This document shows positions 1,280 through 31,363 of a stretch of DNA of 32,000 nt, in pieces (position 1 is the stretch's first letter; each line of letters opens with the position of its first letter). The position numbers were made by a program, and so were the translations under genes. The DNA is from Edaphobacter aggregans (GTDB lineage Bacteria; Acidobacteriota; Terriglobia; Terriglobales; Acidobacteriaceae): assembly GCF_003945235.1 (NCBI RefSeq), contig NZ_RSDW01000001.1:5310001-5342000 (forward strand), written 5' to 3'. Below the pieces are notes generated by a model. That model searched no databases and was not told where the DNA came from. It saw nothing but the letters and a program-made list of their open reading frames with translations.

Positions 1280-3688
1280 ATGAAACTTTGTGCAAGGTCA
1301 GCATTCACGGGCTATTTCGTAGCAGTTCTTTGTGCCTTCGTCGGCGTTTCCTTTTCAAGTGCACAAGAAGTCTTACCAAGGCCCGAACCGCCATTCAAAG
1401 GCCACATCGGGCGCACGGTGCAGGAATCCACAAAAGACTTCCCTCAAGAGGTAAAAGCCCCCAAGGGAGCACCAAACATCCTGCTTATTCTGACTGACGA
1501 TGTGGGCTTCGGAGCCAGCAGCACATTCGGTGGTCCGATACCTACACCGACCTTCGACCGTCTCGCCAAGAACGGTCTTCGCTACACACAATTCCATACC
1601 ACGGCTCTTTGTTCTCCCACACGCGCGGCCTTGCTAACGGGCCGCAATCATCACTCTGCAAATGCGGGAATCATTATGGAAGGAGGGACCGGCTTTCCGG
1701 GCTACAACACACTCATGTCCAAGAGCGTCGGCTCCTTTGCGGAGGTGCTGAGGCAAAACGGCTACAACACCGCCTGGTACGGTAAAAACCATAACGTGCC
1801 CGATTGGCACACCAGCCAAGCCGGGCCATATGATCTCTGGCCCACAGGTCTGGGCTTTGAATACTTCTATGGCTTTATAGGTGGCGACACCAGTCAGTGG
1901 GCGCCCGCCATCTATGAAAACATCAAGCCCATCGAGCCTCCTCACGATCAAAAGGACTACTTCTTCGATCATGACATGGCTGACCACGCCATCGCCCGTA
2001 TCCAAATGCTGCACGCCGTCGCTCCGGACAAGCCTTGGCTGGCTTATTTCGCACCGGGAACAGCTCACGCCCCTCACCACGCTCCAAAGGATGTGATCGC
2101 AAGCTTCAAAGGGCAATTCGATCAGGGATGGGACAAGGTGCGCGAAGAAACTATCGCCCGACAGAAGGCGATGGGTATCATTCCATCGGACACAAAGCTA
2201 ACTGAGCGCTCCGAGGGAATTCCGGCATGGGATTCACTCGACGCGGATCACAAAAAAGTCTTCGCGCACATGATGGAGGTCTACGCTGCTGCGCTGTCGA
2301 ACTGTGATAGAGAAATCGGGCGAGTGCTGGATGCCATTCAAGATTTGGGTGAACTCGACAACACCCTTGTGATCTACATCCAAGGCGACAACGGGGCCAG
2401 CGCCGAGGGTGGTCAGCAGGGCTTGCTCAATGAAATGGCTTTCTTCAACGCCACACGCGAAGACTTCACGGAAGTGATGCGACGGATGGACGAATTAGGC
2501 GGTCCCACCACGTTTAATCACTACCCAATCGGCTGGGCCCATGCCATGGATACGCCTTTTCAGTGGACAAAACAGATTGCTTCGCATTTCGGCGGCACGC
2601 GCAACGGAATGGTTATTTCCTGGCCCGCCCGCATTAAGGACAAGGGTGGTATTCGTCCACAATTTCACCACGTAATCGACATTGCCCCGACCATCCTGGA
2701 AGCCGTCGGCGTTCAACCTCCGTCTGTCCTTAACGGAGTGCCGCAGAAACCCATTGAGGGCGTGAGTATGGTGTACACATTCGACTCTCCAACAGCGCCG
2801 TCTACCCATCGCACCCAATATTTTGAAATGTTTGCGAATCGCGCCATTTACAACGATGGATGGGTAGCCGCCACAACACCCCCGCTGCCGCCGTGGGCAA
2901 GCGGCAAGACCATAGACATCGATGATTACAAGTGGGAACTTTACGACGTTAGCAAGGACTTTAGCGAAGCCAATAACCTTGCGGCACAGCAACCCAAAAA
3001 ACTTCGAGACTTACAGGAATTGTTCTGGATTGAAGCGGCCAAATATAACGTGCTTCCACTGGATAACAGCAAGTTAGAACGCATGAACGTTGACAACCGT
3101 CCCAGCCTCACGCGGGGGCGCACTGAGTTCACTTTCTTTCCCGGTATGACCCGTATCCCGGAAGGCACTGCACCGAGCATCTTGAACAAATCGTTCCGCG
3201 TCACTGCTGATGTGACCATTCCTGCAAATGGGGCCGATGGGATCTTAATCACTCAAGGCGGACGATTCAACGGTTGGGGGCTCTATCTTCTGGATGGCAT
3301 ACCGGTTTTCCATTACAACCTGGTGGGTGTCCAACGCTATAACGTGGCTGGCCCAGATAAGCTTTCTGCCGGCAAGCACACAGTTGTTGTTGACTTCAAA
3401 TACGACGGCGGCGGCCTTGGCAAAGGAGGTCTCGCCACACTCTCGGTGGATGGAAAGAAGGCAACCGAAGTGAAGTTTGCCCGGACAATTCCGTTCCGCA
3501 TTTCGGCGGATGAGACGCTCGACATCGGCGAAGACACCGGCACGCCAGTCAGCGAGGACTACCACGTCCCCTTCAAATTCACCGGCACTATAGCGAAGGT
3601 CGTCATCCTGTTAGGGGACGAAAAAATCACAGCGACCGACCAACAAGCCATGGAACAAGCCGAGTCCGACTTCGCTGTAAGTGATTAG
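1280..3688 (+). CDS. Secreted type-I arylsulfatase (formylglycine-dependent) with a C-terminal beta-rich extension
   Basis: The tracked ORF is 1175-3688. The preferred start is ATG 1280 (GGAG about 8 nt upstream), which gives the signal peptide MKLCARSAFTGYFVAVLCAFVGVSFSSAQE. It has the sulfatase signature LCSPTRAALLTGR (Cys-x-Pro-x-Arg) plus the LILTDDVGFG and YGKNHN motifs. The C-terminal 200 aa are paralogous to feature 1-666. Confidence 0.9.
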   Translation: MKLCARSAFTGYFVAVLCAFVGVSFSSAQEVLPRPEPPFKGHIGRTVQESTKDFPQEVKAPKGAPNILLILTDDVGFGASSTFGGPIPTPTFDRLAKNGLRYTQFHTTALCSPTRAALLTGRNHHSANAGIIMEGGTGFPGYNTLMSKSVGSFAEVLRQNGYNTAWYGKNHNVPDWHTSQAGPYDLWPTGLGFEYFYGFIGGDTSQWAPAIYENIKPIEPPHDQKDYFFDHDMADHAIARIQMLHAVAPDKPWLAYFAPGTAHAPHHAPKDVIASFKGQFDQGWDKVREETIARQKAMGIIPSDTKLTERSEGIPAWDSLDADHKKVFAHMMEVYAAALSNCDREIGRVLDAIQDLGELDNTLVIYIQGDNGASAEGGQQGLLNEMAFFNATREDFTEVMRRMDELGGPTTFNHYPIGWAHAMDTPFQWTKQIASHFGGTRNGMVISWPARIKDKGGIRPQFHHVIDIAPTILEAVGVQPPSVLNGVPQKPIEGVSMVYTFDSPTAPSTHRTQYFEMFANRAIYNDGWVAATTPPLPPWASGKTIDIDDYKWELYDVSKDFSEANNLAAQQPKKLRDLQELFWIEAAKYNVLPLDNSKLERMNVDNRPSLTRGRTEFTFFPGMTRIPEGTAPSILNKSFRVTADVTIPANGADGILITQGGRFNGWGLYLLDGIPVFHYNLVGVQRYNVAGPDKLSAGKHTVVVDFKYDGGGLGKGGLATLSVDGKKATEVKFARTIPFRISADETLDIGEDTGTPVSEDYHVPFKFTGTIAKVVILLGDEKITATDQQAMEQAESDFAVSD

Positions 3689-3728
3689 CCCGCGTGTTCA
3701 ACGTATGGAAAGTTGTTTGAATCACGCT

Positions 3729-4141
3729 TTATGGGGGTCTCACCGATATCATGGGAGCAAATGGACCAACGTAAGATTGTCCCAGAAGGGCTGCTTGTAT
3801 TGCTGGAATCAAGTGAGCCTTCATATGTGACTTGAGGACATATCCAAGGCCCCTTCTGCCATGCATGCGTCGACAAACTGCTGTTCTGAGTGAACCGTTA
3901 GAAACACAACTTTGGCGGAGGGGGCGGAATCGCGCAGTTGACGGGCTGCATCGATACCGCTCAATACTGGCAAGGTAATATCAGCCACGATTACATCGGG
4001 ACAAAGACGAAGGGCTTCCGACACCAGCGTTGCGCCATCCACCACAGTTCCCACGACATCGAACTGAGGTTTCAAAAGCCCATTTGTGGCTTTGAGTACA
4101 GCTGGATGGTCATCGGCAAGTAGTATCCGTGGGCGACTCAC
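3729..4141 (-). pseudogene. CheY/NarL-type receiver-domain protein interrupted by a 1-nt frameshift (or assembly error)
   Basis: ORF 3821-4141 encodes a receiver domain (ILLADDHP...IVADITLP...VFLTVH) and ends abnormally at ...AEGALDMSSSHI*. Shifting one base at the GG run (plus-strand cc at 3844-3845) restores the canonical ...GALGYVLKSHMKAHLIPAIQAALLGQSYVGP..., including the conserved Lys, and reaches a TAA at 3729-3731. No HTH follows. Confidence 0.6.
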
Positions 4142-4420
4142 ATTCCCCTCCGTCAGATCATTCCTATCGCAACCCGGGAGGATGCACTACTGGGGAAATC
4201 TCCCGTTCGAAATCTGATAGTCTCTCTCGTTTCCAAAAGACCTTCTCATCTCACTTTTCGGTAAGTTTAGGTGGCAAGTTGCCGAAAAGCTGACGTCCCA
4301 GCGCCGAGTCTGCAAGGCACTGAAAAGCGAACAACCTGAAGGGAAAGATTTTGGCGCCTACGTCGATATGCCTCTACAATTCGTAACTGCGTGTAAATAC
4401 AAAGACTGAGGGATCTGAGA

Positions 4421-4792
4421 ATGGCTGAGAAAACGATGGTCGAAAAGGCTGGTGAGGCGGTTGGCTTCGGAATTGCGATGGCAGAAGATGTGGCTGGCGC
4501 CGTTAAAACGGCAGTTGGTGCAGCGGTGACGACGGTGACAGATGTTTTGAAGAAGGCACCTACGACGAAAGCTCCGGTCAAGCAGGTTCCCAAAAAAGCG
4601 CCCGCCAAGAAGGCTGCAAAGAAAGCACCTGCAACAAAGGCCATCAAGAAACCCGTGACCAAGACGGCGGGTAAGAAGTCAACCGGGAAGAAGGCTGCCA
4701 AAAAAGTCGCAGTCAGGAAGGCGCCAGCGAAGAAAGCCGTGAAGAGAGCGGTAAAGGAGACTGTGAAGAAGGCTGGCCGACGGCGGAAATAA
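4421..4792 (+). CDS. Histone-H1-like Lys/Ala-rich basic protein
   Basis: A 123-aa ORF with an N-terminal Ala/Val-rich segment followed by AKKA/KKAP-type repeats (KKAPAKKAAKKAPATKAIKKPVTK...). The antisense ORF 4267-4701 is a low-complexity mirror artefact. Confidence 0.7.
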   Translation: MAEKTMVEKAGEAVGFGIAMAEDVAGAVKTAVGAAVTTVTDVLKKAPTTKAPVKQVPKKAPAKKAAKKAPATKAIKKPVTKTAGKKSTGKKAAKKVAVRKAPAKKAVKRAVKETVKKAGRRRK

Positions 4793-5200
4793 CTGTCGCG
4801 AAGAAGGCTGAAAGAGCGGTCAGAAAAGCTGTGAAGCAGGGCTTAACCGAGAATGCCGTAGAGGCAGCGGTCGGACTTGGCCTCTCTAGGGCCTCCGGTA
4901 AGAAAAAGGCATCGGCAAAGCAGCCGTAACTGAGGACGCGCAGGCCTCAAAAAGAGCCTGATATTGTATCGGCGTCTTCATTTCAGGTGTGCCAACTCAA
5001 GGAGTTTCTCGCGCAACGCCATGTTCTCGAGCGTGCTTTCGGTGACCATACGCGCCGCGTGCACAGTTCCGGCATCCCAAGCACCGAAAGTTCGCGGCTG
5101 AGACTGTTCAATCTGCCTCGAGGAACGTAGCAGGATACGCGGTCCATGACGCAAAGACCTGACCATTGTTGACTTCAGGACAATGCACACATTGACAGGC

Positions 5201-5840
5201 TCAGACCACTCTTCGCGCAGCTCTGAAGCGAAGCTCTTCGGAATCGAGTTCTCCGGTCTCCATGTCTCGAAAGAAGACTCTGTAGAACCCCGGAGTGACC
5301 AACTCGACTCCCAACTCTTCGAAGCGAAATACCTCGCTGATGAAGATTCTCTTCTTGTGCCAGCTGATATCGCCGCTATTGTTGACCCGTTGCAGTTGGA
5401 GACCCTTCGGATACCTAAACTCCGGCAACTTGCTCGGCAGTCGTAATGCGCTCGGAATGTACAGACTTGCGGGAACCTGGTTGTTCAGGCCCTCATGCGG
5501 GCGCTCGTGGTTAAACACGTACCGGAAGTTATCAAATCGGCTCTGCTGCGCTCGAAGGGATGCCGCAGGTGGTTTGGTCGTGTCCTCCTTCAAAGTGCGA
5601 TGCATTCGCTCATGACGGCCGTTTTGTTGCGGTCTACCTGCTTGAATGCGCTCGTGCACGATCCCGAGCTTCATCCATCCGAGCGAGAGCTTCGACAGAC
5701 CTAAGAGCCCGGTGCCCGCAAACGGTGCTCCGTTGTCTGTTCTGATCCGCGCTGGCATCCCGTACTCCCGCATCGCTGCTTCGCATACCGCCCGAACCTG
5801 GCTTAGATCCATGCGCGAGACGATCTGGCAACGAATCAGT
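5201..5840 (-). mobile_element. IS481-family (rve/DDE integrase core) transposase, N-terminally truncated remnant
   Basis: The translation contains ARIRTDNGAPF, RPQQNGRHERMHRTLK and FNHERPHEGL, which are the second Asp and the Glu region of the DDE core. The frame stays open upstream of the tracked Met (..LIRCQIVSR-MDLSQ..) but hits TAA at about 5841-5843. The N-terminal HTH and first catalytic Asp region are therefore missing. Confidence 0.75.
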
Positions 5841-8699: not shown

Positions 8700-9409
8700 G
8701 TCAGTGAGTGTACGCGCTGGTTCGCATCACTGGCCCGTTTTTGCGTACTTCCGACTGCTGGATCTGGCAAAGCCACACTGATTCATTCATGCGCGATAGC
8801 CGTCACATCCAAAAGACTGACCCATACCATCCAAACACGCATGTTTCGGTAAGTTCGTAAAAGCTCAGAAAGTAGGCGGTTTCTCCTTACTCGGCCTGCA
8901 AACCAACGCTTTGGCCGTTTCCTCATTAGTGATCTGGCTAAAGTGGTTGCTCGTAGGTCCCCTCTGAAGGGTCAAGTAATCCGTGTGTAAAAACGTAGGT
9001 ACTCGTTGTTTTCGAGAGCAGTTATCGCAAACTGCTATGACGTTTAGGGTCAACATGTTGAATCAGTACGAATGCGCAGAATCGCTGTAAGAGCTTCTAA
9101 ACCACCTGTCAACGCTTCGATCTATGTAATGCCCGGCAAAGTGGATATATCTCCATCACTCCGCAGAAGTCGAGCCATGCTTGAGGTCTTTGTTCTGCCG
9201 CCCTACCTACAGAAGCGGCTCTTGCACCTTGGTGTTGCCACTTGATAGAAGTAGCTGTATTGGTTCGGGACTTGATGATCCCATAGGCCACACAGGCCAC
9301 CTTAACGCCCCCGGCGACAGACGCCATTCGTTTGCGACCGGCGCTGCGGTTATGGGGTTGTTTGCAGATACCTACGAAAGCTGAAGGTGTTGCAAGATAA
9401 ACCGAATCG

Positions 9410-9607
9410 TCATGTTGAAATTTGAGCTCGGTCAAAGGCTCGCTGTGACACTGTCGAGGGATTGCAGACGTGATTCTTGTCGTGCTTCTCAAGTTCGATT
9501 TCGGTTCTTGCATTCGCAATCGTGCGCAAGCATTCCAAACAAATGGAGTCGAAGGAACCATCGCTATTTCGTCGGTGCGGAAAAAAAGGAGGAAGAGTGG
9601 GGATCAT
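9410..9607 (-). CDS. Small CxxC-x19-HxC protein, copy A (65 aa)
   Basis: The internal Met of tracked ORF 9410-9673 gives MIPTLPPFFPHRRNSDGSFDSICLECLRTIANARTEIELEKHDKNHVCNPSTVSQRAFDRAQIST. It is collinear and roughly 65-70% identical with the ORF at 22053-22250, whose N-terminus is fixed by upstream stops. Both have AAGAGAGA about 8-10 nt upstream of the ATG. Confidence 0.7.
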   Translation of the reverse strand: MIPTLPPFFPHRRNSDGSFDSICLECLRTIANARTEIELEKHDKNHVCNPSTVSQRAFDRAQIST

Positions 9608-9963
9608 CGCATCTGTCTCTCTTTCTGGGGAGAACCTCCAACATACGGCAGCTGTACCCAGAAAGATGTTCAATTTAGCTCACGTCAACTTTGTCTTCTC
9701 CGGCAACCTAGCGCCCGGACCCTTCCGGTCCCGGCGCAGCTTTGATGGAAGATGCGTTTGGGGGGCGGTGTTTGTTATCCCTGCCGTCGTTATCTCCATG
9801 CTCTTCACCGTTTCCGCCACATAACCTTAGAGCTGCCAAGCTACAAATCGGGCGGCGGATTGTCCGCCTCGAAGCACACAAGATAATATTTCGTCGATCT
9901 GCAAACCTGCCATATGATTTATGAGATTTACATGATGAGCCCCTGTACGGAAAGAGGCCACTG

Positions 9964-10632
9964 ATGAACGCGCAGAACAATACATTATTTGATCCCGCAG
10001 CGTTTCTAGCGAACGCGGGACTAGGCAGAAGGATTGTCCAAGTCAAGGCAAAAGGAGTCTTTTTTTCACAGGGGAATCCAGCCGATTGCGTTTTCTACCT
10101 TCAGACAGGCCGGGCGAAGCTCACAGTCGTCTCACGAGCCGGAAAAGAAGCCACAATCGCCCTTCTCTCTGCTGGCGAGTTCATTGGAGAAGAGTCGATT
10201 GCTGGGGCGGCTGGACTGAGGATGGCGACGGCGACGGCGATCACCGCATGTACTGCCCTCAAGATAGAGCGAGTGGAGATGATCCGCGTTATGCACGAGG
10301 AGCACGCCTTCTCCGACCTGTTCTTGAAGTTTCTGCTGGCTCGCAGCATGCGAACCCAGGCCGATCTGGTTGATCAGCTTTTTAATTCCAGCGAAAAGCG
10401 TCTGGCGAGAATTCTCCTGTTGATGGCCGAGTTTGGCCAGTCGGGAAATCCGGAAACGCTAATCCCTCAAATCACGCAGGAAACTCTGGCAGATATGATC
10501 GGTACTACGCGATCTCGTGTCAGTTTCTTTATGAATCGTTTTCGCAAACTAGGATTTATTGAATACAACGGCCGCATCAAGGTCCATAAGTCGCTGCTCA
10601 ACGTTGTCCTGCACGATCAGTCCTTCGAATAA
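9964..10632 (+). CDS. Crp/Fnr-family transcriptional regulator (cNMP-binding domain plus C-terminal HTH), paralog 1
   Basis: 222 aa. The beta-roll region reads FFSQGNPADCVFYLQTGRAKLTVVSRAGKEATIALLSAGEFIGEES. The HTH reads ITQETLADMIGTTRSRVSFFMNRFRKLGFI. TAA stop. Confidence 0.9.
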   Translation: MNAQNNTLFDPAAFLANAGLGRRIVQVKAKGVFFSQGNPADCVFYLQTGRAKLTVVSRAGKEATIALLSAGEFIGEESIAGAAGLRMATATAITACTALKIERVEMIRVMHEEHAFSDLFLKFLLARSMRTQADLVDQLFNSSEKRLARILLLMAEFGQSGNPETLIPQITQETLADMIGTTRSRVSFFMNRFRKLGFIEYNGRIKVHKSLLNVVLHDQSFE

Positions 10633-10859: not shown

Positions 10860-11519
10860 TCACTCGGAGAAGTTGGGAGCATTCAGAGGCGTCGGCATCG
10901 CCAGACCCGACTTCTGCCGGGACGCCTGCGGAAAGATCGGATTCATCGGCTGGACAATTGCGTAATGGACCAAACTGGAGCAATGAACGCAATCTGTTTC
11001 GTTGATAAGGAGGATGTCTTTGCCGAGAACCTGCGGGAACGCTCTCAGGCACTCTGGGCAGGTAACTGTAACGTACTCCTCCCCGGAAGAGTCATGTCCG
11101 TTCTTCGGGATCCAGATGGGCGCCAATGTGCCGGGATGTTGGAAAAACTGCCATTCCATGTGGGCCATATCATGCATTATCTGCAATAAAGAACTCAGGT
11201 TTGTTCCTTTTTCATAGAAGGCATCAGCGACAACTCCGGGTGGTACGCCATCACCTGAAAGCGCTCCGCTCATAGCGATCGTACGGATTGCGGGAAACCG
11301 GCGACGAACCACAGAGAGAAACTCAAAGCCGGACATACCTGGCATGTTGAGATCGGAGAGAATGATGTTGGGGATTTCATTCCGGATCTCAGCGAGTGCA
11401 GAAAACCCGTCTTCCGCTGACCGCACGTTATACCCAGACTCAGTAAAGATTTGTGATAGCAACATCAAGAGCGATGCATCATCGTCTACGACAAGAAGCT
11501 TCACTTTCGCATCGGGCAT
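10860..11519 (-). CDS. Response regulator: receiver domain fused to a C-terminal CxxC-x19-CxHC (zinc-ribbon-like) domain
   Basis: 219 aa. The receiver domain shows LLVVDDD, ILSDLNMPGMSG, IAMSG and FYEKG. The C-terminal ~95 aa carry ..GEEYVTVTCPECLRAFPQVLGKDILLINETDCVHCSSLVHY.. with no HTH or enzymatic motif. Confidence 0.85.
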   Translation of the reverse strand: MPDAKVKLLVVDDDASLLMLLSQIFTESGYNVRSAEDGFSALAEIRNEIPNIILSDLNMPGMSGFEFLSVVRRRFPAIRTIAMSGALSGDGVPPGVVADAFYEKGTNLSSLLQIMHDMAHMEWQFFQHPGTLAPIWIPKNGHDSSGEEYVTVTCPECLRAFPQVLGKDILLINETDCVHCSSLVHYAIVQPMNPIFPQASRQKSGLAMPTPLNAPNFSE

Positions 11520-11574: not shown

Positions 11575-12363
11575 CTAATTTTCCTTCTGTTCAATTTTGC
11601 TCACTCTGGCCGTGCCTCGCTTAGCTTTCCTTGATTCATTTTGGGGAGTGTCCAAGATCGAAGCACTTATTGCATTGTGTTCAGGCAATTGATCGTGCAG
11701 AACCACATTAAGAAGCGACTTGTGAACCTGAATGCGGCCGTTATATTCGATAAAGCCGAGCTTCCGAAAGCGATTCATGAAGAAGCTCACGCGCGATCTG
11801 GTAGTTCCAATCATTTCTGCCAGTGTTTCCTGCGTGATCTTCGGAATCAATGTTTCCGGTGCTCCTGGCTTGCCAAATTCCGCCATCAACAGGAGAATTC
11901 TTGCCAAACGCTTTTCGCTTGAGTTGAAAAGCTGATCCACAAGATCAGCCTGAGTCCGCATATTGCGAGCCAGTAGAAACTTCACAAACAAATCAGAAAA
12001 TGCATGTTCCTCATGCATGACGCGAATCATCTCCGCCCGCTCTATCTTTAGCGCGGTACAGGCGGTAATTGCGGTAGCCGTTGCCAGTCGAAGCCCGACC
12101 ACTCCGGCAATCGACTCTTCACCGACGAAGTCGCCCGCGTTGAGCAGGGTGATCGTAGCCTCTTTACCATTCTTCGAAATGACTGTGAGTTTTGCGCGAC
12201 CCTTCTGAAGATAAAACACGGAATCAGCTTGATTTCCCTGTGAAAAGAAATCTCGCTTTGCTTTCAATCGGATGATCCTTCGTCCTAATCCCGCGCTCGC
12301 GAGAAAAGCGGCGGCGTCAAACTTTCCGTTTTCTAACTCAGGCATCAGGACAGCCCTTTCCAT
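11575..12363 (-). CDS. Crp/Fnr-family transcriptional regulator, paralog 2 (with a ~40-aa basic C-terminal tail)
   Basis: 262 aa. By hand count there are ~29 mismatches over ~208 aligned residues against paralog 1. The true start may be the second ATG at 12345 (MPELENGKFDAAAFL), by comparison with paralog 1 (..NTLFDPAAFL). TAG stop. Confidence 0.9.
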   Translation of the reverse strand: MERAVLMPELENGKFDAAAFLASAGLGRRIIRLKAKRDFFSQGNQADSVFYLQKGRAKLTVISKNGKEATITLLNAGDFVGEESIAGVVGLRLATATAITACTALKIERAEMIRVMHEEHAFSDLFVKFLLARNMRTQADLVDQLFNSSEKRLARILLLMAEFGKPGAPETLIPKITQETLAEMIGTTRSRVSFFMNRFRKLGFIEYNGRIQVHKSLLNVVLHDQLPEHNAISASILDTPQNESRKAKRGTARVSKIEQKEN

Positions 12364-18316: not shown

Positions 18317-18686
18317 ATGACTGAGTTGAAAAAGACGACATTCGACGCAGCCGCCTTTCTGGCGAACGCTGGTGGGCCTTCGTCGCGTAGGAAACCATTT
18401 CAATGCCGCGCAGATCGGGCATTTTGAGGTGACCAAGTATCTCGGATTCTTTCTTGCCAGGGTGAAGATATATCGGTATCAGATTCAGCAGGGTGCACTC
18501 CCCTTGTGTCCGACCAAGCCGCGCCCCTTGATGTCTCCGCTGCTTGAGGCGGCTGCGAACATAGGCCCCAGGTTGCGTCAGCCGGCTAAGGAATCCCTCA
18601 ATTTCCTGGCCAGACTGAGCTGTTTAGCTCAGTCATTTTTCTGCGTCATTTGGAACAATTGGAAACGTATTCCAGTGTTTGCATAA
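18317..18686 (+). pseudogene. Third, decayed Crp/Fnr paralog (N-terminal part only, frameshifted)
   Basis: ATG 18317 opens MTELKKTTFDAAAFLANAG.., compared with MPELENGKFDAAAFLASAGLGRRI in paralog 2. After the G-run at 18374-18376 the similarity continues one frame over (GLRRVGN...YLGFFLARVKIYR..NIGPRLRQ versus GLGRRII...FYLQKGRAKLTV..VVGLRLAT). No HTH region is left. Confidence 0.4.
18616..18631. promoter_or_regulatory. Palindrome (C)TGAGCT-GTTT-AGCTCA(G), the same half-sites as 17131-17146
   Basis: 7-bp arms CTGAGCT/AGCTCAG span 18615-18632. The site lies about 55 nt upstream of the ATG at 18686. Confidence 0.35.
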
Positions 18687-19495
18687 TGACGACACGGTTG
18701 CCATTTCGTTCCCTTTTGTTGATCTCGCCGCTACTGTTGTGCATGGGGCTACGCCAGTCTGCAAATGCACAACAACGAGGCAAATTCGTTTCGTCTGCAA
18801 ATGCTCCGCTCACGACAGAGCAAGTCGTAGAAAACCTGGTTAAGAGGAATCTTGAGCGGGCCCAGGCGCTCCATGCCTATTTAGGGACTCGAATTTACCA
18901 GGTGGAATACCGCGGTTTTCCAAACGACCGCAGTGCGGAGATGGTCGTGGAGGTAAAGTACCAATCACCCGGAACGAAGGAATTCACAATTCGCTCTGCG
19001 ACTGGGTCTAAAGTGATTATCGACAAAGTATTCAAAAAGCTCCTGCAGGCTGAACAAGAGGCGCTGGCCATAGAGGCTCAAACTCGCTCGGTTTTGAACA
19101 ACGACAATTACAATTTCACGCTGCTTGAGCAACAAAACACGCCATCCGGTTTGATGTACGTGCTTACCGTAGAGCCCAAAATCAAGGACAAGTTTCTTTA
19201 CCAAGGTCGAATCTGGGTGGATGCAGCAGACTTTGCGGTGGTCCGATTAGAGGCAGAACCCGCAAAAAAACCCTCCTTCTGGACGAAGAATAGCGAAATC
19301 GAGCAGGCATACATTAAAGTGGGTGAGTTTTGGCTTCCTGTACGCAACCACAGCATCAGTGAGATCAGGCTTGGTGGAACCGCGGAATTAACAATCCGCT
19401 ACAGCAATTATCGAATCATGAGTAAAGAGCAGATCAGCAATTTGTCAACGGTGGAACCGGTTCGGTCGGTAGACACTACCCACGCGCAACGCTAA
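18686..19495 (+). CDS. LolA-like / outer-membrane lipoprotein-sorting-type periplasmic protein
   Basis: The start is taken at ATG 18686, giving the signal peptide MTTRLPFRSLLLISPLLLCMGLRQSANAQQ. The body (..YQGRIWVDAADFAVVRLEAEPAKKPSFWTKNSEIEQAYIKVGEFWLPVRNHSISEIRLGGTAELTIRYSNY) matches my recollection of LolA_like-fold hypothetical proteins. The family call comes from memory only. Confidence 0.6.
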   Translation: MTTRLPFRSLLLISPLLLCMGLRQSANAQQRGKFVSSANAPLTTEQVVENLVKRNLERAQALHAYLGTRIYQVEYRGFPNDRSAEMVVEVKYQSPGTKEFTIRSATGSKVIIDKVFKKLLQAEQEALAIEAQTRSVLNNDNYNFTLLEQQNTPSGLMYVLTVEPKIKDKFLYQGRIWVDAADFAVVRLEAEPAKKPSFWTKNSEIEQAYIKVGEFWLPVRNHSISEIRLGGTAELTIRYSNYRIMSKEQISNLSTVEPVRSVDTTHAQR

Positions 19496-21703: not shown

Positions 21704-21736
21704 TTTCGAAGTTGGCTGTTTGTTACTCTTAAAAAG

Positions 21737-21762
21737 GCCCGCATCCGCGGGCTTTTTCTTTG
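21737..21762 (+). terminator. Rho-independent terminator of the catalase gene
   Basis: GCCCGC-ATCC-GCGGGC is followed by TTTTTCTTT, and lies 34 nt after the stop. Confidence 0.75.
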
Positions 21763-22052
21763 TGTTGCCTTCGTATCAAATAAAACGCTTGAACGACGAC
21801 CAAGCTTTTGATCTTTGTCTCTCTGCATCGTATGAAATAGATTTCGATTCCTATCGAAAGTCTGCCATTCGGCGGTGATACCATCCTCGCCCTCTCATGG
21901 TCACGTCATTCGTAAAGGAGTCGCAGTGGTGAGTCTGTTTGAGTGAAGCTCGCGAAAAGTTGAAGAGGGGTTGCACCATGCGTCCATCTATTCTCGTAGA
22001 CAACGCACTCGCATAGGACTAGGCTTAAGCCTCACAAGAGAGAGGCGACAAG

Positions 22053-22250
22053 ATGGTTTTCACTCTTCCGCCCTTCTTCCCGCACAGACGAAATCGAGAC
22101 GGTTCGTTCGACTCCATTTGCCTGAAGTGCTTGATCACAATTGCTAACGCAAGAATTGAAGCCGATCTGGCAGCGCACGACATGGATCACGTCTGCAATC
22201 CTTCCATCTTGTCCCAACAGGCTTTTGATCGCGCTCGGACACCGCGCTAA
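22053..22250 (+). CDS. Small CxxC-x19-HxC protein, copy B (65 aa)
   Basis: MVFTLPPFFPHRRNRDGSFDSICLKCLITIANARIEADLAAHDMDHVCNPSILSQQAFDRARTPR. Upstream in-frame stops fix the start. It is a paralog of 9410-9607. The antisense ORF 22032-22310 is judged spurious. Confidence 0.7.
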   Translation: MVFTLPPFFPHRRNRDGSFDSICLKCLITIANARIEADLAAHDMDHVCNPSILSQQAFDRARTPR

Positions 22251-22293
22251 CCGATCCAGCCTTGCCCATTTCTGAACGTCTTTAGGCGGCGTG

Positions 22294-22467
22294 ATGATGG
22301 TTGAAATCAAATTTTCACACCGCTACAACCCTGATGGGATGTGGCAATCAATTTGCCCGGAATGTTATAGAACTGTGGCGGAAAGCCGCGAAGAGGCAGA
22401 CCTAAAGCGAGCCGAGAGCATCCATGTTTGCCTCTCACTCAATGGGCGCATGGTTCGGATCGATTAG
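22294..22467 (+). CDS. Small CxxC-x19-HxC protein, copy C (57 aa, below the ORF-track cutoff)
   Basis: Hand translation gives MMVEIKFSHRYNPDGMWQSICPECYRTVAESREEADLKRAESIHVCLSLNGRMVRID*. It has the same H-R-x-N-x-D-G...SIC-x-E-C...x19...HVC layout as copies A and B. It lies 43 nt downstream of copy B. Confidence 0.6.
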   Translation: MMVEIKFSHRYNPDGMWQSICPECYRTVAESREEADLKRAESIHVCLSLNGRMVRID

Positions 22468-30272: not shown

Positions 30273-30644
30273 TTGAAAAATTCTGAATATTCTTTCGGTT
30301 CTACATCGAACGATCTGCTATTTAAGCTCGATCCAAAGCTGCCGCATTCTTATCTCAATTATCAGGTAATCGCGCAAAACAGAGAAGAAGTGCAGGATAT
30401 CCAGAACGCCCCATCCATCAGTATCAGCACATACCTGACCGACTCGGCACAGACGCAGCTTCTCACGACAATTAGCGTTTACAGTCAAAGAGGCGAAAGC
30501 ACTGATCAAATTCGATTACTCTACATGAACGCTGTTGCGTGTTCGGTATGGCACGATATGGGCAGGTCAGCCCTAATAATCGGTTCAGTACATCGTCCAC
30601 CGAAGACGACTTCGCTGACATTTGGAGTGCCATTTAGTGAATAG
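30273..30644 (+). CDS. Hypothetical protein (weak call, TTG start, AT-richer region)
   Basis: A 123-aa ORF with AAGGA 9 nt upstream of the TTG. I recognise no family. Confidence 0.3.
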   Translation: MKNSEYSFGSTSNDLLFKLDPKLPHSYLNYQVIAQNREEVQDIQNAPSISISTYLTDSAQTQLLTTISVYSQRGESTDQIRLLYMNAVACSVWHDMGRSALIIGSVHRPPKTTSLTFGVPFSE

Positions 30645-30862: not shown

Positions 30863-31363
30863 ATGACACTATTGACCGGTTGGGAATCCGTCCGCGAATT
30901 ATCCGCTATGCAAGACCGCATGAACCGCATGAACCGTCTTTTCCGCGAGTCGTATGGGTCCGAAGTGCCGGAAGAGGCGTTGACAACCACCACCCTCGCA
31001 CCGCCAGTGGACATCTACGAAGACGAGCACAACATTATTCTGAAGATCGAAGTCCCGGGCATCGACGAAAAAGAAATTGATGTTCGCATTCAGAACAACA
31101 CCCTCACCGTCCAAGGCGAGCGCAAGATCGAGAAGGAAGAGAAAGAGGAGAACTTCCGCCGCGTCGAGCGGCAATACGGAAGCTTTACTCGCTCGTTCAC
31201 ACTTCCCAGCTCCGTGGATCCGGGGCAAGTGAGCGCCCGCTGTGATAAGGGCGTGCTGAAGATTAGCTTGGCCAAGAAGGTTGAAGCCAAGCCCACGCAG
31301 ATCAAAGTCAATGTTGGCGGCGAGAAGACGCTCGAAGCCGTGACTCCAGGAAAGGCTGCATAA
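30863..31363 (+). CDS. Hsp20/alpha-crystallin small heat-shock protein
   Basis: 166 aa. Alpha-crystallin domain: PPVDIYEDEHNIILKIEVPGIDEKEIDVRIQNNTLTVQGERK...FRRVERQYGSFTRSFTLPSSVD...GVLKISLAK. Confidence 0.92.
   Translation: MTLLTGWESVRELSAMQDRMNRMNRLFRESYGSEVPEEALTTTTLAPPVDIYEDEHNIILKIEVPGIDEKEIDVRIQNNTLTVQGERKIEKEEKEENFRRVERQYGSFTRSFTLPSSVDPGQVSARCDKGVLKISLAKKVEAKPTQIKVNVGGEKTLEAVTPGKAA

Follow-up and report, generated by a model that had tools for sequence, protein, structure and literature searches.

Haloarchaeal one-domain zinc-finger µ-proteins, among them HVO_0758, HVO_2753 and Brz of Halobacterium, are shorter than about 70 amino acids (aa) and carry one Cys/His metal site; many paralogs occur per genome, and mutants are affected in stress responses, biofilm formation or regulation (PMC6562870, PMC10716476, PMC11241148, PMC2253796). 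They offer the closest analogue for how the bacterial protein family described here may work, an analogy of function without homology. The members of our family are likewise free-standing, small and multi-paralog, with a single Cys/His site, but the two groups have no sequence relationship and belong to different domains of life. The haloarchaeal proteins carry two C(P)XCG knuckles (C4), whereas our family has one CxxC, followed by F/L/Y and not by G, an HxC as its second site, a fixed 19-residue spacer and an HRxNxDGxxDS patch. A second comparison is with Ros/MucR Cys2His2 and ββα fingers, which resemble the family in its predicted β-hairpin with CxxC followed by a helix that gives the distal ligands. 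The ligand spacing of Ros is CX2CX9HX3-4H, whereas that of the family is CX2CX19HXC, and the family core is acidic, not basic. The ROS_MUCR and zf-C2H2 models of Pfam gave no match, and Ros was not among the Foldseek matches.

We analysed a stretch of 32,000 nucleotides (nt) from Edaphobacter aggregans, hereafter the window, in which an earlier note had described three small open reading frames (ORFs). All three are present exactly where it placed them. Copy A (9410–9607, minus strand) encodes a protein of 65 aa beginning MIPTLPPFFPHRRN, with its ATG at 9607, and stands alone; we refer to this arrangement as A-type. Copy B (22053–22250, plus strand; 65 aa) is the first gene of a tandem and copy C (22294–22467, plus strand; 57 aa) the second, with the ATG of C at 22294 following directly on an in-frame GTG (22291). 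The family profile hidden Markov model (HMM) detected A, B and C with E-values of 1.4e-30, 3.7e-30 and 1.2e-23, respectively. A and B belong to a 'long' subfamily and C to a 'short' one. Comparing each copy with the whole window by tblastn, we found A and B, described as collinear in the earlier note, to share 74% identity across 62 aa (E=3e-30), and C to be more diverged, with 50% identity to A and B across 40 aa (E=2e-11 and 1e-9). The same searches found no fourth copy in the window. The CxxC-x19-HxC motif occurs in all three copies, which on this similarity are paralogs.

The family extends far beyond this genome. Copy A retrieved 32 ortholog clusters at 90% identity (63–90% identical, mostly 65–69 aa) and copy C retrieved 47 (68–91% identical, nearly all 57 aa), none of them with a name or a Pfam domain. 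A profile built from 70 sequences was run exhaustively against the representatives of 1.84 billion clusters (at 50% identity): 2,750 scored at E≤1e-3, and 987 of them at E≤1e-10. A word-indexed profile search returned 488 clusters, all (488/488) labelled 'hypothetical protein'. To define the family signature, we aligned A, B and C with 146 diverse representatives that are 28–72% identical to A, giving 149 sequences. At least 90% of these conserve H11, R12, N14, D16, G17, D20, S21, I22, C23, C26, T29, E36, L39, H46 and C48 (copy A numbering). The resulting register, H-x11-C-x2-C-x19-H-x-C, spans a domain of ~40 residues and is rigid: the 19-residue spacing between CxxC and HxC holds in 141 of the 143 sequences having both motifs, and the spacing HR-10-CxxC in 141 of 142. 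The five sequences in which a motif is missing appear to be frameshifted or truncated gene calls. The consensus reads [FY]-P-H-R-x-N-x-D-G-[ST]-[FYW]-D-S-I-C-x2-C-[FLY]-x-T-[VI]-A-x4-E-x-[ED]-L-x3-[ED]-x2-H-[VI]-C, with a shorter core form of [FY]-P-H-R-x-N-x-D-G-[ST]-x-D-S-I-C-x2-C-x2-T-x6-E-x2-L-x6-H-x-C. All three window copies have the core register and the hallmark residues, except that C, in line with the short subfamily, has Q in place of D20. With a net charge averaging −1.5, the core is slightly acidic.

Family members have a median length of 76 aa and mostly measure about 55–80 aa. The N-terminal 48 residues are conserved; the C-terminal tails vary and differ between subfamilies. Longer members were considered as possible fusions and rejected: P0243 and P0083 are read-throughs into a neighbouring 72-aa gene, and the others are over-extended start calls. 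The 695-aa P0314, placed in the 90%-identity cluster of the 57-aa short copy P0036, is elongation factor G and a clustering artefact. The 72-aa gene itself (MKYIAEYAVSHLGN...; 4207–4425, plus strand, in locus L001, with the same gene in L002–L004) has a 4-nt overlap with the stop codon of the long copy; neither Pfam nor NCBIfam matches it, and the window lacks it.

A narrow peptide-pattern scan of one genome per GTDB species identified 33 loci, all in Acidobacteriaceae/Terriglobales. Carriers include Tunturiibacter gelidiferens M8UP28, strain KBS 89, Granulicella, Edaphobacter and Acidobacterium sp. S8, and two further copies lie on megaplasmids of G. tundricola MP5ACTX9. Even with the narrow pattern, several metagenome-assembled genomes hold 3–5 family genes each. 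Among named carriers, the family is so far documented only in Acidobacteriaceae/Terriglobales, and no copy was found on viral contigs.

The family is so far unnamed and is in none of the curated libraries that we searched. Pfam gave no match for A, B or C at E≤1, NCBIfam and PADLOC gave no family match, PHROGs gave none below E=0.04, and a profile search of all PDB sequences revealed no relative. With neither a PHROGs or PADLOC match nor a viral locus, nothing places it among phage or defence proteins. The sole Pfam signal among the 149 members was to DUF7685 (PF24734), at 26.2 bits for the two-domain member P0086, which is below the gathering score of 27; other members score 13–14 bits, and neither A, B and C nor P0086 qualifies for DUF7685 by this threshold. 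The likeness covers the H-x-N-x-DG...SIC-x2-C half (profile positions 13–34 of 43), whereas the helix and the HxC are left uncovered by that model. We found no mention of DUF7685 in the literature and nothing on small zinc proteins of Acidobacteria. Annotation also tends to pass over the genes: the G. tundricola copy WP_157478250.1 is a 'hypothetical protein' in RefSeq, the copy on the second G. tundricola megaplasmid (pACIX903) is missing from the PLSDB gene table, and a long copy in L005 was left uncalled.

We quantified selection by the Nei–Gojobori method. The earlier note had seen many third-position differences between A and B; these differences are mostly synonymous, with dN=0.154 and dS=1.60 (dN/dS 0.10). 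Median dN/dS was 0.12 for long orthologs (171 pairs) and 0.11 for short orthologs (105 pairs), and copy B compared with its orthologs gave dS of 0.13–0.5 and dN of 0.03–0.1. The C-terminal tails are likewise under purifying selection inside each subfamily. Antisense ORFs overlap A and B, and since their third codon positions coincide with those of the sense genes, dN/dS alone cannot identify the coding strand. No antisense frame, however, stays open across the family: the best is open in 7 of the 18 long copies, in 12 of the 14 short ones and in 6 of the 15 others, and the best-open frame differs among these three groups. The rigid Cys/His register runs throughout the sense frame. Coding on the antisense strand was rejected for lack of a family-wide open frame, and the sequence comparisons show that A, B and C are real protein-coding genes under strong purifying selection (dN/dS≈0.10–0.12). 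The argument of the earlier note that three retained, diverged copies are real, selected genes is borne out: homologs are abundant outside the source genome, they conserve the Cys/His positions and the 19-residue spacer, and dN/dS between copies is about 0.1 rather than about 1.

With the family HMM, we found a long→short tandem like that of B and C in at least 13 other genomes, with about 45–60 nt between the two genes. The conserved B–C spacer (22251–22293, plus strand) contains a Shine–Dalgarno (SD)-like AGGCGG, which has the consensus AGGxGG across the 13 tandem loci aligned, and no terminator. B and C probably form a conserved bicistronic unit, co-transcribed from a promoter upstream of the long copy. 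In one lineage, L006–L010, the long copy has decayed (its ATG is replaced by CTA, and a deletion takes out HVC) with no damage to the upstream block or the short copy, a pattern consistent with transcription of both genes from a promoter upstream of the long copy. These loci, together with L042, where the short copy occurs alone, indicate that a long partner is not indispensable to the short copy. In L001, a degenerate 62-aa member (3677–3865, plus strand) that keeps SICxxC and has lost HxC lies just upstream of the A-type long copy.

Alignment of the 300 nt before the long copies of 20 loci showed strong conservation of ~85 nt before the ATG, with the sequence farther upstream being unalignable. 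The conserved sequences fall into two types of block, A-type and B-type, one per gene type. The A-type block (9608–9683, minus strand), a putative promoter and 5' leader, contains ATTGAACATCTTTCTG at 9659–9674 and the SD-like AAGAGAGA at 9616–9623. It is found at copy A in the window and at L018, L001/L002 and L026, with the consensus ATTGAACATCTTTCTG.ACA...GTA..TTG.AG..TC.CCC.G.AAAGAGG. The B-type block (21979–22052, plus strand), also a putative promoter and leader, is conserved across 15 tandem loci with the consensus cg.CTATCT...C...TAGACAATGCAcC..TATAGGACTAcGCTTgAGccTCACCAAGAGAGAGGCcgCAAGATG. Within it, an imperfect inverted repeat, GTCCATC-N6-CGTAGAC (21982–22001, plus strand), overlaps a −35-like TAGACA (21997–22002, plus strand). 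A −10-like TAGGCT (22020–22025, plus strand) follows the latter after a 17-nt spacer, matching a TAnnnT hexamer at this distance in the consensus, and the SD-like AAGAGAGA lies at 22036–22043 (plus strand). In L021, the repeat is a perfect palindrome, GTCTATC-N6-GATAGAC.

The AAGAGAGA motif, which the earlier note had seen upstream of both A and B, belongs to a purine-rich SD-like tract, conserved in orthologs, with which both block types end. Within the window, the upstream boxes occur at A and B and nowhere else, and a shared regulon inside the window was rejected on this ground. A simple sigma-70 scan called no promoter at the B-type block, and Rfam had no match to the leader. The promoter and operator assignments are putative, and we propose that each gene type may be an autonomous expression cassette with its own upstream block of ~85 nt. 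The purine tract AAGAGAGAGG is complementary to the pyrimidine-rich LPPFFP codons CUUCCGCCCUUCUUCC of the same genes, so that 22036–22045 would pair with 22065–22081, and 9616–9625 (minus strand) with the LPPFFP codons of A. Such pairing could sequester the ribosome-binding site; its RNAalifold energy is weak and it offers no covariation to test.

An AlphaFold2 (AF2) model based on the 149-sequence alignment reached a mean pLDDT of 73.7, and 80–89 over residues 11–50. It predicts strands at residues 11–13, 19–23 and 28–33 and a helix at residues 36–45 (topology βββα(α)), placing C23/C26 at the hairpin turn and H46/C48 right after the helix. A Foldseek search of this model against the PDB returned nothing significant (best E 1.3), with weak resemblances to HicB N-domains and the XPA zinc finger (TM about 0.36–0.48). 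A second AF2 model, of P0086 as a natural two-domain fusion and thus a probe of dimerisation, had a pTM of 0.33, a value that speaks neither for nor against dimerisation, and a helix where the first has β3. Because the two models disagree over residues about 24–33 (strand versus helix), the fold beyond the knuckle is not firmly predicted. The convergence of C23, C26, H46 and C48 on one site is suggested by their sequence pattern, by which the domain most likely folds round one metal ion, probably Zn(II). H11 is a fifth conserved potential ligand, and the resulting 3Cys+2His composition would also fit an Fe–S or other metal site. The invariant polar patch of H11, R12, N14, D16, G17, D20 and S21 may form a functional surface. 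By inspection, we saw no HNH/His-Me nuclease, CDGSH or Rieske motif, as spacings and motifs do not fit. Nor is there a ZAS-type H-x3-C-x2-C: the residue four before C23 is F, Y, W or I (67, 34, 18 and 8 of 138 sequences), not His. Pfam gave no match to zf-HC2.

The window forms an island of stress and regulatory genes, encoding two Crp/Fnr paralogs, a receiver-plus-zinc-ribbon response regulator, an integrase fragment, Mn-catalase, DUF892, HSP20, BrkB, OmpA and Ysc84. The closely similar Crp/Fnr-family paralogs (9964–10632, plus strand; 11575–12363, minus strand) flank the response regulator (10860–11519, minus strand). The earlier note had remarked that copy A sits beside a Crp/Fnr gene; we found such adjacency at roughly four independent loci, namely the window, L001/L002, L026 and pACIX903 of G. 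tundricola, which is suggestive but no fixed linkage. It had also placed B and C just downstream of the Mn-catalase/DUF892 pair. The position is correct, but the link is one of adjacency: a strong intrinsic terminator at the end of the Mn-catalase gene (21732–21757) lies between, making B/C a separate unit.

A census of 144 flanking ORFs found 124 Pfam families, led by HSP70 (4 loci), nitroreductase, PAS histidine kinases and Fer2 (3 loci each); at least 3 of the 4 HSP70 loci fall in one syntenic orthogroup. Neighbours are thus highly variable, and the census found no fixed operon partner. Response regulators neighbour the family in the window, L032 and pACIX903, cold-shock genes do so in L044 and pACIX903, and toxin–antitoxin (TA) modules and transposases are frequent. 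The recurrence of Crp/Fnr, response-regulator and cold- or heat-shock neighbours is mild and, counted without a genome-wide background, no more than suggestive.

Several loci call for separate mention. The pACIX903 locus (L052) resembles the window set in having a Crp/Fnr gene, a response regulator, a cold-shock gene and a CCHC gene. In L044, a distant CCHC gene (5001–5234) overlaps the downstream cold-shock-domain gene (5210–5440) by 25 nt, an arrangement that suggests translational coupling. A 123-aa ORF of the window without a Pfam match (30273–30644, plus strand) precedes HSP20 (30863–31363, plus strand); homologs of it, together with HSP20, lie no more than a few kb from a long/short tandem or a lone short copy in L005, L014, L024 and L042. 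A homolog of 18650–19495 adjoins the A-type gene in L018 and L026. The integrase fragment (rve_3 core domain; 5201–5812, minus strand) and the rearranged synteny relative to these two loci suggest past reshuffling of the island. In two genomes, the CCHC gene has members of another unannotated family of small proteins on either side, at 4689–4889 and 5231–5455 (both plus strand) in L032 and at 4710–4901, 5231–5407, 8877–8978 and 9072–9293 in L034. The members of this second family are about 66–74 aa and helical, with a C-terminal HR-x-TC-x2-C, and the window has none.

On balance, we favour the reading that A, B and C are paralogs of a large uncharacterised family whose members would each form a zinc-type mini-domain and serve as small partner-binding or regulatory proteins. 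In this mini-domain, a Zn(Cys2HisCys) site would be built from a CxxC at a β-hairpin knuckle and an HxC at the end of a helix, and the H-R-x-N-x-D-G-x2-D-S patch before the knuckle would be the functional surface; the protein would be neither a DNA-binding finger nor an enzyme. The slightly acidic core and the absence of a fixed operon partner point to such a role, and so do the missing enzymatic signature, the occurrence of several paralogs and the putative promoters that serve them. The earlier note had speculated that the three copies are free-standing versions of the output domain of the regulator at 10860–11519, acting as decoys, partners or redox/metal sensors, and had remarked on the spacing common to copy C and the regulator tail. 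The regulator tail, H-x11-CPEC-x19-CVHC, does have the gaps of the family, including that of 19 residues, and in L032 a regulator homolog and another family member are 1.4 kb apart. The second knuckle, however, is CVHC and not HxC, and the similarity is not significant: the best tblastn E-value of copy A against the tail is 1.6 (noise), hhalign of the family profile gives a probability of 1.5%, and the family HMM does not match the regulator. The tail has none of the invariant polar or hydrophobic residues, lacking R12, N14, D16-G17, D20-S21-I22, T29, E36 and L39, and the L032 homolog reads CSEC-x17-CDFC with no upstream His. The missing hallmarks and this shorter spacer identify the tail as an ordinary C4 zinc ribbon of variable spacer (19 residues here, 17 in L032), which resembles the family in its CxxC knuckle, a 17–19-residue spacer and a second metal knuckle and differs in that the second knuckle is CxxC. 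Judged by sequence, the match in spacing is coincidental; homology to the tail was rejected, and the output-domain proposal is very improbable.

Among the other explanations, redox or iron sensing is unlikely, although the invariant potential ligands number five and not four. The 3Cys/2His set would then bind a [2Fe-2S] cluster or act as a redox-switchable thiol–zinc site, reporting oxidative stress to, for example, Crp/Fnr regulators, which lie next to family genes at some four independent loci; other fitting neighbours are nitroreductase and 2Fe-2S ferredoxins, at 3 loci each, and, in the window, Mn-catalase and DUF892. These associations are, however, weak and variable, the terminator parts B/C from the catalase gene, and no known Fe–S signature is present (no CDGSH, no Rieske CxH...CxxH). 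In most CxxC-plus-HxC mini-domains, moreover, the zinc is structural. The conserved tandem of two small genes, with the palindrome GTCTATC-N6-GATAGAC on the −35-like box as a candidate operator for one of the products, brings to mind a TA-like or other autoregulated module, and TA modules and transposases are frequent nearby. This is improbable, as B and C are paralogous to each other, which TA pairs are not, solo copies are common (A, L026–L043), and either one may go missing (the long copy decayed in L006–L010, the short alone in L042). The Foldseek likeness to HicB antitoxin N-domains (TM 0.44–0.48 over 36–37 columns, probability 0.35–0.44) is not significant at E=2.5, the core is acidic, PADLOC and Pfam gave no TA match, and HicA/HicB of Pfam turned up neither in the family proteins nor among the top neighbour families. 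Finally, small, multi-copy and often tandem genes with a conserved N-terminal part of 48 residues and subfamily-specific tails could encode RiPP precursors, the former part being the leader and the tail the modified core. We give this hardly any credence: the neighbouring genes include no recurrent modifying enzyme, protease or exporter, the conserved part is a rigid metal-site register unlike a leader helix, and the tails are under purifying selection within each subfamily.

The zinc-type mini-domain with a partner-binding or regulatory role is the reading that we carry forward. Small Cys/His metal-binding proteins are already known as a kind, and defining the family resolves no long-standing question; what is new is a large family that gene callers often miss, with a signature ready for building a domain family. 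Its cultured carriers, Granulicella tundricola MP5ACTX9, Tunturiibacter gelidiferens M8UP28 and KBS 89, are concrete targets for genetic and biochemical work. Acidobacteriaceae rank with the most abundant bacteria of soil, yet, as far as we are aware, little is known about their stress responses and signalling. A bolder idea, speculative and unlikely in our estimation, is that the proteins are metal-dependent or redox-dependent mini-regulators specific to Acidobacteria. A dedicated, operator-controlled promoter would drive long and short paralogs together, and these, as homo- or heterodimers, would bind Crp/Fnr-type or response regulators and modulate them under stress. If this were true, the family would represent a previously unrecognised layer of small-protein signalling in a dominant soil phylum.
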